A stretch of 63,999 nt of DNA, filler included, from Candidatus Woesearchaeota archaeon (GTDB lineage Archaea; Nanobdellota; Nanobdellia; Woesearchaeales; B72-G16), in assembly GCA_003650545.1 (NCBI GenBank). It is 3 parts of 3 records of this genome, joined end to end, with 100 filler letters (N's around TTAATTAATTAA, not from the genome) between each part and the next. Parts side by side here need not be neighbours in the genome. Positions count along the whole stretch, not along the records: positions 30,955 to 61,212 come from QMQO01000016.1; 2 more parts are not named here. The stretch is one strand, 5' to 3'. The stretch's first letter is position 1. Every line of letters starts with the position of its first letter. Below, in pieces: positions 42,001-45,000 of the stretch. The position numbers were made by a program.

Positions 42001-45000
42001 CGTATGTATTTGCCTTTTCCTTTACCTGATTTCTTAAAATATCTTTTACAAGATTCAGAACAGAAAACAAATTTCTTGTGTCCGATGTATTTTATATAAG
42101 AAACTGTATCCATTTCTTCTCCACACCAATCACATTTCATTTTATTTTCTTTTTTGATAAATGAAAATAGACCCATCGTATAGCCGAAAATATCTGTTTT
42201 ATTTATATTTTATTGAAAATAAAAACAGAAATCTGTGTTGAAAAATGATTTATTCAGAGTTCAAGTGTGATTGTTTTTTCCTTTTCATTGATTTCTTTTA
42301 ATATTTTATGATTTTTTAATTTTTTTTTGATTTCTTGCCAGGAAAGACTCTTACAAGCTTCGTTTATTTGATAGATTATATCTTGCACCAAATTGAAGTT
42401 TTGATAAAGTAGATCACCTTTTTTTATATTTTCTTTTAATGCAAGCTGAAGCTCCTCTAGTTTTTTTTGTTGTAGTTTAATGATCTTTTCTTGCTTTTTG
42501 ATTTCTTTTTCTTGGGTTGTTAGTTGCTTTTTTTCTCTTTTCTTTTCTTGGACTTCAGTCAGAACAGTGTCTAGAGCTTTGTTAAAACTTTCCTGTGGCT
42601 CTTGTTTAAAGTTTTTGTAGAGCTTTAGTTTGAAAGGCGTAATATCTTTTACTCGGTTATTTTGTTTTACTATTTGAGCATTTATTTCTTTATTTTTTAT
42701 TTTTCTTATAGCGTCATAAATACTAGAAACATCGTTATTTGAGAGGTGCTTTTTGTCTTTTTTTATTTTTGAAATTAACAACAGTTCTTCAGCATAAGTT
42801 CCGCCTAACGCGAGGTCTATTGCTAACGTTTTTACAATTGAGTCCCTCTTGCTCTCTTTTATTATTTGTTCTAGTTTATCCTTTGTTAATGTTAGGGTAT
42901 TGCATTTTAATTTAGGGTAACTGTATCGAATACCGCCACGAATTGTACGGTCTTTCCATGATTGTGTTTCTAGTGGAGAACGAATCGTGAAATCGGTTTC
43001 GCACAGAATTACATTACCTGGCGGGATTAATTCTATGATCATGATGTAGTTCTTTTCTTTTGTTGAAAAGGTAATTTGGATTATTCTTTCAAAGTCTATT
43101 TGTTTGATTTCATTTACTCTAGCATTTTTGAGATATTTCCTAAGGAATCTACAGAAGCCAGGTGGTTGTGGTGAGCTTTGTTTTGCACTACTTAAATATA
43201 CGAAGTTTGGTGTTATTCTTAGGATTAATCTTCCTGCACCTGTTTTATGGAATTGGATATAGATATCCTTTTTATCTGGTTGATAGATTTGATCGACTTT
43301 TGCACCTATTAGAATTTGAAGTTCTTTTATTATGTAATGAAGTTCTAATGCAGGCAGTTCTTGTTTCATTGTATACAGATTATTTGTTTGTTTTATTTAG
43401 GTTTTGGTTGATTGCTGTCAAAGTACCAAATATTTTCTATATGACTTGGCAGTGTTTTTGATAAGGGATGCAGCAGGACTTTACTATATGTCAACCCAGA
43501 CGGCATTATCATATCTTTTTTCATGTAATGTATTTGTTAAGGCATTTTTTCTCTTAATTTGCTAAAATCTTTTGAATCATAGTTATATATCATCTCAAGT
43601 TTTATTTCTTTCTTAAAATCTTCCTATAATAATTCTGACATGTTTTCTATTTTATATTCTTCTGCTATTTGGAAGACTTCTAGATTTTCAATAAATCCTT
43701 CGACATATCTCTTGATTGTTTCAATCAATTCATTTAGATGTTTAGTATCTCTATATGCTATAACACTATAAAAATCATATTTGCCAATAATTTTAGAAAA
43801 ATGAAAAATATATTTGTTTCCTTTCATCATTGTTATAAACTTTGTTCTATCTTCAATAGGATTTATTTTAACCTCAAACAAAATAAGCGCAAAATTTGGA
43901 AGACCAATTAATTTTGGATTAATAAAGGGGATCAATTTTAATATCCCTTGCGTTTGCATTTTTTTAATTCTCCTGGCAATACTGTCTCTCTTTAGCTTTG
44001 TTTTCTTTGCGATTTCTGTAACAGTCATCCTACCATTTTTAAACAGAGCTTTGATAATCTTCTTATTCTTATGGTCTAGTTTTGTTATTTCAGTCATAAA
44101 TAAGCAAATATTGGTATATATTATAAAATTTACGCTTATTTTAAGCATTTTTATCACATAAACTATTTAAAACACTCACACAACTGATATAAAATGGATT
44201 CGATAGAAAAAATCATATTAAAATACAATCAATTGAAAGCAGTTGTTAGAAGACAAGGATATATTGCTACTTTACTAAAGTTAAAGAGTGCACCAGACCT
44301 TAGTGATAAAATATTTGAAGAAATCAATAGTAATATCAATATTGATGAATTGTGTGAACTAATTGAAGGTCTGCGTGGTAGTGGAAAATTTTGGGAAAGA
44401 ATTAGAACACTAGAAAATTACTCTTTATTATCAGACAAACATTTTTCTAGGAATAGAAAATTAAAAAAGACTGCTGAAGACCTGCTTTCAAAATGGAATT
44501 ATAGGGTTGATCCAGATCGTTTTTTTCAAACATTATTTACTTTAAATAAGCTAGGTTTAAGACCAACACAAAATACAATAGATGAACTTTTTGAATACTT
44601 TCTTGTAGGGGTTAGTCCAGATGTAGAACATTTGGCTTTATTAAGTAAGGCAGGACTTAAACCCAGCAGAAAGATTGATGAATATGTAGAAGATATGTTC
44701 GGCAGCCTCATGTCAATGGATGAAGAACATAAACCAGAACCTGAAGAAATCGTAGAGTTATTTGAAAGGTTAGGTCTTAGACTAAAAAGTAAATATATCC
44801 AAGATACATTAGAACATGATATACATATTAGTATCGATACATCATATGCATCATGTCATTGGGAAAAAAGAACTCCTAAACTTGATTTGAGAGCCTATGC
44901 AATCTTTTATGAACTAGGATATAAAATCAAATTGTCTAAGGAATTATATCAACTATTAATAGCTAAATTTAATCTGAAGTATAAACAAAAAATAGCTATA

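Follow-up and report, generated by a model that had tools for sequence, protein, structure and literature searches.

Can the protein RqcH, which acts on large ribosomal subunits with a stuck peptidyl-tRNA, binding them and driving C-terminal tailing without a template, be made from two separate chains? To our knowledge, RqcH and NEMF have been studied everywhere as one long chain, the coiled coil of which opens scissor-like in the tailing cycle. The genome of a Candidatus Woesearchaeota archaeon (Woesearchaeales, assembly GCA_003650545.1) raises this question, because a genome-wide survey's note had claimed that the archaeal RqcH/Rqc2 homologue is encoded there by two unlinked genes: one for a 371-aa NFACT-N part and one for a 260-aa NFACT-R part, both whole open reading frames within their contigs. 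We analysed a stretch of 63,999 nucleotides (the window, filler between its joined parts included), in which the gene for the N-terminal half lies on record QMQO01000016.1. The features of this gene and of its partner on another contig are as follows.

42254..43369, minus strand: rqcH-N gene (G000:C16:11300-12415 in contig numbering), complete ORF of 371 aa, ATG at 43369, TGA at 42254-42256
42860..43369, minus strand: NFACT-N domain with tRNA-facing loops, residues ~1-170, approximate boundaries
42620..42859, minus strand: helix-hairpin-helix (HhH) region, residues ~171-250, approximate boundaries
42362..42589, minus strand: first coiled-coil helix (CC1), residues ~261-336, assigned from contacts in the complex model
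42257..42361, minus strand: N-terminal part of the M domain, residues ~337-371, up to hairpin strand 1 (...KEKTITLEL)
43391..43399, minus strand: TATA-like box TAAATAAAA, read by eye, centred ~26 nt upstream of the rqcH-N ATG
G000:C2:19180-19962, plus strand: rqcH-C gene, complete ORF of 260 aa, on a different contig from rqcH-N

The two products divide one RqcH between them. Against the archaeal profile RqcH_arch (NCBIfam NF041120), the N-half scores 273.4 bits over positions 3-376 of 645 and, in a second search, 272.5 bits over positions 3-380; the C-half scores 313.8 bits over positions 380-645. The scores of 272.5 and 313.8 bits sum to 586, while each half by itself stays below the curated full-length cut-off of 400 bits, and no single protein exceeds it. 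Since the two matches abut at position 380, they cover the entire RqcH, coiled coil included. This complementary coverage bears out the claim of two genes and overturns the survey's remark that neither half, at the sensitivity used there, matches the coiled coil in the middle. The Pfam model NFACT_N is itself divided: residues 9-339 of the N-half cover model positions 4-350 (2.6e-48), and residues 2-57 of the C-half correspond to model positions 370-425. The N-half also aligns to residues 1-380 of human NEMF (3.8e-21). Residues 69-182 of the C-half match NFACT-R_1 (1.4e-35) and are the only such match in the genome. Both halves are what the survey took them to be, and each ORF is contig-internal and has a start and a stop codon of its own. 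A box resembling TAAATAAAA, CTATAATAA, stands ~27 nt upstream of the C-half ATG and is preceded by an intergenic region of ~300 nt. The by-eye reading of TAAATAAAA suggests that rqcH-N may have its own promoter and a leaderless transcript.

The pair contains NFACT-N with the DR and EIM loops, the HhH region, and NFACT-R with the D-x-W-x-H motif, and by these features it belongs to RqcH. The coiled coil with its M domain (CC-M) does not reside in a single chain: the 371-aa product carries helix 1 with strand 1, and the 260-aa product carries strand 2 with helix 2. In the alignment with NEMF, E94-R95 of the N-half stand at the position of the DR motif (fERIiqitF against vDRIvdfqF), with Glu replacing the Asp, and E113-L114 stand at the EIM position (iiELippGN against iiELydrGN). 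The roles of both motifs are set out in the available text of 10.1101/2020.09.03.281279. R95 and E113 are invariant among 70 N-halves, and at least 90% of them keep E94. Through the HhH region, the alignments with NEMF and with the RqcH_arch profile continue without a break, and its residues A183, G189, and G190 are invariant in the 70 N-halves. Residues 187-230 also give a weak match of the Fpg type. In the C-half, D102 corresponds to D482 of B. subtilis RqcH, I104 to W484, and H106 to H486. Among 31 C-halves, D102 and H106 never vary, and the Trp position of the motif is taken by Ile or Val. Mean column identity amounts to 48% in the 70 N-halves and 54% in the 31 C-halves.

The cut falls in the turn of the small β-hairpin that forms the M domain, at the far end of the coiled-coil arm. 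Full-length relatives have a strand-turn-strand at this point. The N-half stops after strand 1, with its stop codon falling where these relatives carry the turn, and the C-half begins with Met followed by strand 2. On a 637-aa full-length reference, our N-half ends at position 366 and our C-half starts at 377, leaving no surplus residues at the junction relative to the full-length protein. The same holds across the order: 20 Woesearchaeales N-halves end at 364-372, and 29 of 30 C-halves start at 375-380 (the remaining one at 386). The C-halves of six genomes of the same class but outside the order (G160, G176, G260, G155, G287, and G235) begin within positions 375-378 of the reference, and G160, a 0.49-Mb single-contig genome, is cut at model position 381. 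The C-half of another genome from this group, G245, is a 290-aa ORF that aligns from position 355, and its start codon was probably set too far upstream.

We modelled the complex between residues 255-370 of the N-half and residues 1-80 of the C-half. The prediction gave ipSAE values of 0.63, 0.64, and 0.63 against 0.00 for the best of three controls, a score that may in part be a memory of the solved structures of NEMF, Rqc2, and RqcH and therefore speaks for likeness to them rather than for binding of these particular copies. Partner pLDDT did not fall below 73, and the runs had at least 95% of their contacts in common. The ipSAE mark was attained by 116 of 157 solved complexes and by 2 of 215 mismatched pairs, counts that are only approximate because self-made alignments were used. 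In the model, N-half residues 286-336 pair in antiparallel fashion with C-half residues 10-50 (for example 314-18, 307-29, and 297-39), and residues 364-370 of the N-half contact residues 1-8 of the C-half to form the hairpin.

We therefore interpret the ORF in the window as the N-terminal subunit of a two-subunit RqcH, derived from an ancestral single gene that was cut at the hairpin and whose chains reassemble, and we assign this reading a probability of roughly 0.8. Each gene would be expressed separately. The N-subunit would contribute NFACT-N, HhH, coiled-coil helix 1, and hairpin strand 1; the C-subunit, encoded on contig C2, would contribute hairpin strand 2, coiled-coil helix 2, NFACT-R, and a C-terminal domain. 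After translation the chains would rejoin, held together by their long antiparallel coiled coil and by the hairpin to which each gives one strand, and the full RqcH architecture would thereby be restored. The tRNA-facing loops would then sit on the N chain and the ribosome-binding NFACT-R on the C chain, and the tip that contacts the uL11 stalk base would be built from both. According to the available text of 10.1101/2020.09.03.281279, B. subtilis RqcH contacts the 50S subunit at two places only, the CC-M tip and NFACT-R. The two genes, the exact place of the cut, its conservation, and the selection on both halves are established. We infer joint action of the two products from the complex prediction, their co-occurrence, and purifying selection on both halves, and we predict that the halves bind each other, bind the ribosome, and are active in tailing.

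The co-occurrence emerges from a profile search of 151 Woesearchaeales genomes, the present one included, with a match threshold of E≤1e-5. RqcH matches were found in 148 of the 151, and full-length matches (>400 bits) in none. At least two matches were present in 132 genomes, one in 16, and none in 3. Three unpublished genomes among the 151 (G112, G121, and G132) all match; without them, the counts become 145 of 148 and 0 of 148. A further search gave 148 homologues of the N-half at E≤1e-10, and of the 120 listed nearly all are stand-alone proteins of 337-421 aa. Among the matches listed, the halves lie 343-418 kb apart in the single-contig genomes G147, G085, and G016, and on separate contigs in the fragmented genomes wherever both were listed. 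The survey had described stand-alone halves across the order, none of full length and, where both were hit, on different contigs, and every statement of it that could be checked holds. Both halves are under purifying selection: dN/dS is 0.06-0.18 in all four close pairs tested (three of the C-half, one of the N-half), with dS near saturation in two of the four.

The most serious alternative is that the products work apart, with no obligate heterodimer: the C-half would serve as an independent NFACT-R protein that binds ribosomes or RNA, and the N-half as a separate tRNA-binding protein. The genes are unlinked and sit in variable neighbourhoods, as this explanation would have it. Our search across 50 Woesearchaeales loci found no conserved neighbours of either half, the N-half loci being limited to 300-nt flanks. 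Next to our own halves lie a TRASH zinc-ribbon gene, an Lrp/AsnC gene, a dph5-like gene, and dph6; other loci of the order share dph5 once and part of dph6 once. Because the halves are unlinked and have no conserved neighbours in common, co-regulation is not evident. The C-half could plausibly bind ribosomes alone, and the 16 of 151 genomes with a single match could mean that one half is able to exist by itself, although incompleteness or search sensitivity may account for them. Against separate functions, each half has kept a coiled-coil helix and a hairpin strand for which no solo use is evident. The halves also co-occur in 132 of the 151 genomes, and the complex prediction passed while its controls stayed at 0.00. 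Furthermore, a neighbouring order keeps the two halves in one tightly coupled gene string. Taken together, we consider independent functions unlikely.

Two half genes could also arise from a broken assembly, from a frameshift, or from a pseudogene in decay, and such cases do occur: the apparent split in G187 consists of two ORFs that run off contig ends, so that we dropped this genome as a true split, and G188, a 72%-complete genome, has two adjacent pieces broken at another site. For the genes described here this explanation is refuted and retains a very small probability. Both ORFs are complete and contig-internal, the identical cut recurs in 148 of 151 genomes including the single-contig G147, G085, and G016, the dN/dS ratios are those of constrained proteins, and no more homology was found in the frame beyond the TGA of rqcH-N. 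Least probable of all is protein trans-splicing, the covalent joining of the halves by a split intein: split inteins occur in Nanoarchaeota, for example in the DNA polymerase of N. equitans, but a Pfam search of both halves found no intein domain, and since the end of the N-half and the start of the C-half deviate by no more than a few residues from their counterparts in full-length relatives, there is no room for intein halves.

How may the gene have been split? In the neighbouring order, rqcH-N, cysS, and rqcH-C form a string on one strand that is complete in six genomes and joined by ATGA stop/start overlaps. In three more genomes the linkage is partial, the string meeting a contig end or one half lying elsewhere. 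In different genomes, extra genes have accumulated in the gap between rqcH-N and rqcH-C. In family f188 of the same order, the two halves appear as a collinear single chain that reads strand 1, Gly-Asn, strand 2. This arrangement, cysS flanked by the rqcH halves beside single-chain relatives, is new here and suggests gene fission by insertion. Within Woesearchaeales, none of 30 C-half loci and 20 N-half loci has cysS as a neighbour, and the cysS of our genome is on contig C19. A supposed fusion in G334, reported as an open frame of 1101 aa (N-half, insert, and C-half), contains many stops in translation and resolves into three ORFs. The odd long frames of G322 and G080 are ordinary halves.

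One history that would connect these arrangements begins with cysS landing in the codons of the hairpin turn and splitting rqcH. The string would be an intermediate, the halves would later have drifted fully apart in Woesearchaeales, and the f188 chain would be a re-fusion made once cysS had been lost from the gap. We put this history forward tentatively and would sooner doubt than assume it. The C-part tree requires at least four changes of state. AU tests on two clades, both chosen after the trees had been seen, rejected neither: all 46 split rows as one clade gave p 0.478 with a log-likelihood difference of 2.93, and the nine split rows of the neighbouring order as a clade without the single-chain G371 gave p 0.33, a value with which either polarity, fission or re-fusion, would fit. 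The unpublished genome G121 contributes one row to the first C-part tree and to the 46-row test. In the C-part tree, G371 falls within the split rows (supports 97, 95, and 99), and in the N-part tree it clusters with G334 and G337 (support 93). If the cysS-flanked arrangement is ancestral, it would be a rare case in which the splitting of one gene by another inserted into it has been caught in the act, and if the insertion reading is true, the RqcH coiled-coil tip would be a site that was opened and then closed again in evolution.

A natural two-chain RqcH, presumably active and fixed across an archaeal order, would mean that the covalent link at the stalk-base tip is dispensable. The split protein also offers a ready heterodimer with which the role of each half can be tested. 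Since neither half attains the family cut-off, these genomes can appear to lack RqcH in annotation.

How does this system relate to what has been described? In our search for literature on split archaeal RqcH, the papers listed were general RQC or unrelated ones, as judged by their titles and abstract openings. We found no paper that uses the name aRqcH, none that names the N. equitans pair NEQ438 or NEQ506, and, among the matches listed, none that ties Nanoarchaeum to NFACT, COG1293, Rqc2, or NEMF. The passages searched in PMC11237513, PMC8407392, and 10.64898/2026.05.13.725050 contain no NFACT, fibronectin, or RqcH term. Split protein genes as such are documented in DPANN archaea, with reverse gyrase, tRNA synthetases, and Dph1/2 as examples in the available passages of Dombrowski et al. 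2019 (PMC6349945). The split-gene passages of that paper mention neither NFACT nor RqcH, with "NFACT" and "fibronectin" occurring 0 times. Like rqcH, these examples, as given there, are informational genes in two parts in genome-reduced archaea with presumed post-translational assembly.

The closest precedent is the listing by Podar et al. 2013 (PMC3655853), in which arCOG01695/COG1293 is split into two genes at a common site in both nanoarchaea; COG1293 is RqcH according to the available text of 10.1101/2020.09.03.281279. By this published listing, the two cases are alike in family and in having N and C parts in two genes. The Woesearchaeales case thus extends one already published for Nanoarchaeota, with the difference that the split here covers a whole and much larger order (0 of 151 genomes with a full-length protein) and further lineages of the class. 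Single-chain proteins have been solved for B. subtilis RqcH (7aqc, 7as8), human NEMF (3j92, 9gy4), and yeast Rqc2 (8aaf). The split pair equals single-chain RqcH, NEMF, and Rqc2 in domain order (NFACT-N, HhH, coiled coil with M hairpin, NFACT-R) and in motif conservation at the DR, EIM, and DWH positions. In contrast to single-chain RqcH, it consists of two chains, each scoring below 400 bits, with termini at the tip whose counterpart in B. subtilis RqcH touches uL11 and H44.

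The archaeal RqcH homologue of this Woesearchaeales genome (G000) is encoded by two complete open reading frames (ORFs) on different contigs.

Window 42254 to 43369, minus strand: rqcH-N, the N-half (G000:C16:11300-12415), complete, 371 aa, ATG start, TGA stop
G000:C2:19180-19962, plus strand: rqcH-C, the C-half, complete, 260 aa

Re-reading of these ORFs confirmed all coordinates that the genome-wide survey's note had assigned to both genes, and its interpretation as an RqcH homologue in two unlinked genes was right. The Pfam domain NFACT_N covers residues 9-339 of the N-half (2.6e-48), and residues 1-380 of human NEMF also match this protein (3.8e-21). 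Against NF041120, the NCBIfam equivalog for archaeal RqcH, the N-half scores 273.4 bits over model positions 3-376 of 645, which is below the cut-off of 400 bits. A search of the whole genome with the same model returned three matches. The N-half covers positions 3-380, G000:C2:19183-19956 (plus strand) covers positions 380-645 with 313.8 bits, and the third match, on contig C6, is at chance level (E 0.00135). The C-half is the sole NFACT-R_1 match in the genome (Pfam 1.4e-35). NFACT_N itself is divided: the N-half takes model positions 4-350, and positions 370-425 fall on C-half residues 2-57. The survey's caveat that neither half matches the middle coiled coil does not stand once a profile is used, since the two halves meet at position 380 of the model. 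The split is real.

From the order, we took 20 N-halves and 30 C-halves and aligned them, together with the G000 pair, to a 637-aa single-chain relative. The N-halves end at reference positions 364-372 (366 in G000), and the C-halves start at 375-380 in 29 of 30 cases and at 386 in one (377 in G000). Since most C-half alignments begin within residues two to nine of the ORF, there is no leftover sequence at the break. At this site single-chain relatives contain a strand, a turn and a strand (e.g. IVIDF-EEP-LNLDI), followed by a second long helix. The N-half terminates in strand 1 (...KEKTITLEL), and the C-half begins with Met and strand 2 (MRVTISLKKSV), followed by NASSYYEKAKKAKKK. For RqcH from B. 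subtilis, the M domain is described as a vestigial hairpin, and the CC-M tip (at uL11/H44) and NFACT-R (at the A-site finger) as the sole two contacts with the 50S subunit (10.1101/2020.09.03.281279). Based on the alignment and these tip contacts, we place the break in the turn of the hairpin, at the tip that touches the ribosome, so that each product keeps one coiled-coil helix. The junction offers no space for intein halves, and Pfam detected no intein domain in the N-half or the C-half.

The proposed reassembly of the two halves via the coiled coil and the hairpin is well supported by sequence and model. Complex predictions with N-half residues 255-370 and C-half residues 1-80, each with its own alignment, gave ipSAE values of 0.63, 0.64 and 0.63 (best of three controls: 0.00), a partner pLDDT of at least 73 and a contact agreement between runs of at least 95%. 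Of 157 solved complexes 116 attain this mark, as do 2 of 215 mismatched pairs; the calibration is only rough because our own alignments were used. N-half residues 286-336 are predicted to run antiparallel to C-half residues 10-50 (314 with 18, 307 with 29, 297 with 39), and residues 364-370 to contact C-half residues 1-8. The predicted complex thus recreates, from two chains, the coiled coil and hairpin found in the single-chain protein. Since structures of NEMF, Rqc2 and RqcH have been solved, the high score may come from the predictor's memory of them, and it shows likeness rather than binding by these particular copies.

The same arrangement pervades the order. NF041120 finds matches at E<=1e-5 in 148 of 151 genomes (113 of the 115 high-quality ones), G000 and the unpublished genomes G112, G121 and G132 included, and the full-length cut-off is exceeded in none of the 151. 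By hand count, 132 genomes contain two or more matches, 16 contain one and three contain none (G069, 99% complete; G095, 95%; G140, 59%). Among the matches listed (150 of 296), fragmented genomes with both halves carry them on separate contigs; a distance of 343-418 kb separates the halves in the single-contig genomes G147, G085 and G016. In the class Nanobdellia, 163 of 201 genomes match, 55 of them above 400 bits, and additional single ORFs of ~580-610 aa score just below this cut-off. The break site is shared by several split lineages outside the order, and other lineages lack any match; the class thus includes single-chain, split and absent states. One 72%-complete genome of the class (G188:C34:1880-3452, minus strand; locus L080) contains two adjacent same-strand pieces covering model positions 3-227 and 320-640; this break differs from the hairpin-turn break of the order and may come from a frameshift, from decay or from a split of another kind. 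Stand-alone N-halves of the same type are also present in public protein sets, where they carry the label 'NFACT family protein' and are assigned to Woesearchaeota, Nanoarchaeota or DPANN. A few public 597-aa proteins labelled Woesearchaeota share 46% identity with the single-chain form found in a neighbouring order.

Both halves are conserved. Mean column identity is 48% for 70 stand-alone N-halves, in which R95 and E113 never vary and E94 rarely does; E94/R95 and E113 align to the DR and EIM loops, described as facing the tRNA anticodon (10.1101/2020.09.03.281279). The C-halves (n=31) show 54% identity with D102 and H106 invariant. These residues align to D482 and H486 of the DWH motif of B. 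subtilis RqcH; the Trp of this motif is replaced by Ile or Val. Three C-half pairs gave dN/dS estimates of 0.076, 0.057 and 0.176, and one N-half pair gave 0.063, with dS near saturation in two of the four. By eye, a TATA-like box can be seen ~26-27 nt before the ATG of both genes. Three C-half ORFs of the order, L104 (G007), L105 (G026) and L106 (G048), measure 350, 415 and 382 aa, with N-terminal extensions of 83-157 residues that have no Pfam match and probably stem from upstream start codons in an open frame, not from added domains.

A 72-aa zinc-ribbon protein (window 41958-42176, minus strand) is encoded on the strand of rqcH-N, 77 nt downstream of it, and matches Arc_trans_TRASH (1.9e-06), zf-FCS (1.5e-05) and, weakly and below cut-off, VATC, the Vms1-associating treble clef (0.0028). 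Vms1 is an RQC factor, which together with this weak match makes the neighbourhood suggestive. No homologue was seen within the 300-nt flanks of 20 N-half loci of the order. Pfam gives no match at E<=0.01 for two nearby window ORFs, 40729-41817 (plus strand, 362 aa) and 44194-45348 (plus strand, 384 aa). The C-half gene is flanked by two diphthamide-synthesis genes (locus L001 on G000:C2, 448-1197 and 2397-3755, both minus strand). One encodes a dph5-like TP_methylase, the other a 452-aa protein with an Asn-synthase-like domain and Diphthami_syn_2 (Dph6); among the order loci examined, dph5 is common to one locus and part of dph6 to one. The ~300-nt intergenic region upstream of the C-half gene contains TTTAATTAGCACACATA twice in tandem (L001 ~1321-1358).

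Within the neighbouring order, which has both split and single-chain forms, 18 of 61 genomes searched contain matches. Two split genomes outside Woesearchaeales had both halves on one contig with cysS in between, and the 18 genomes divide as follows.

rqcH-N, cysS, rqcH-C, full string on one strand: six genomes (G221, G310, G334, G357, G361, G353)
N-half, then cysS up to the contig end: two genomes (G370, G337)
cysS, then C-half, with the N-half on another contig: one genome (G336)
Halves unlinked on different contigs: two genomes (G228, G186)
Single ORFs of ~600 aa: three genomes (family f188)
Weak partial matches: four genomes

The intervening gene encodes a full CysRS (PF01406, 1.1e-107) and is the only cysS match in the four string genomes examined (G221, G334, G361, G357). 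ATGA overlaps at string junctions in G221 and G361 fit translational coupling. Additional genes in the gaps vary by genome: a serine hydrolase, an RsmB/F-like methyltransferase with a PUA protein, or a metallophosphoesterase. A single 1101-aa frame reported without stops in G334:C4 was refuted; the translation is full of stops and resolves into three separate ORFs. In G310, cysS is cut into ORFs of 240 and 251 aa (L072 1426-3711, minus strand; G310:C7), with a 270-aa ORF carrying a phage endonuclease I domain (4.5e-08) between them. This cysS has the appearance of a second split gene, perhaps one created by a nuclease gene. cysS adjoins neither half in the 50 Woesearchaeales loci examined, and is likewise located elsewhere in four further split lineages within the class.

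How often the gene broke was addressed with trees from 'quick' searches, midpoint-rooted, and with AU tests on groups chosen after the trees had been seen. The C-part tree has 78 rows, and the 35 from the order all fall into one clade together with four rows of other orders (SH-aLRT 99). The remaining split lineages fall elsewhere on a weak backbone, requiring at least four changes of state; a single clade of all 46 split rows is not rejected (p 0.478). In the C-part tree enlarged by the neighbouring order, the added rows make up a clade (99) placed within or next to the Woesearchaeales rows, and the single-chain G371 protein lies among split, cysS-linked rows (97, 95, 99). The less resolved N-part tree groups G371 with G334 and G337 (93). 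Its junction (...KFVIKF-GN-LNITIDI) is a collinear join of both halves of its nearest relative, and a clade of the nine split rows of this order without G371 is not rejected (p 0.33). The data are compatible both with a single fission and a later re-fusion and with two separate fissions in this one turn.

COG1293 is identified as RqcH in the work on the B. subtilis protein (10.1101/2020.09.03.281279), and under this older name the family is already in print as split in Nanoarchaeota (Podar et al. 2013, PMC3655853). Our literature search found no paper naming RqcH or NFACT as split, or extending the split to Woesearchaeales. The new points are the string with cysS between the halves and the single-chain relatives in which the two halves are collinear, and the rqcH case is best described as an order-wide addition to a known kind of split gene.
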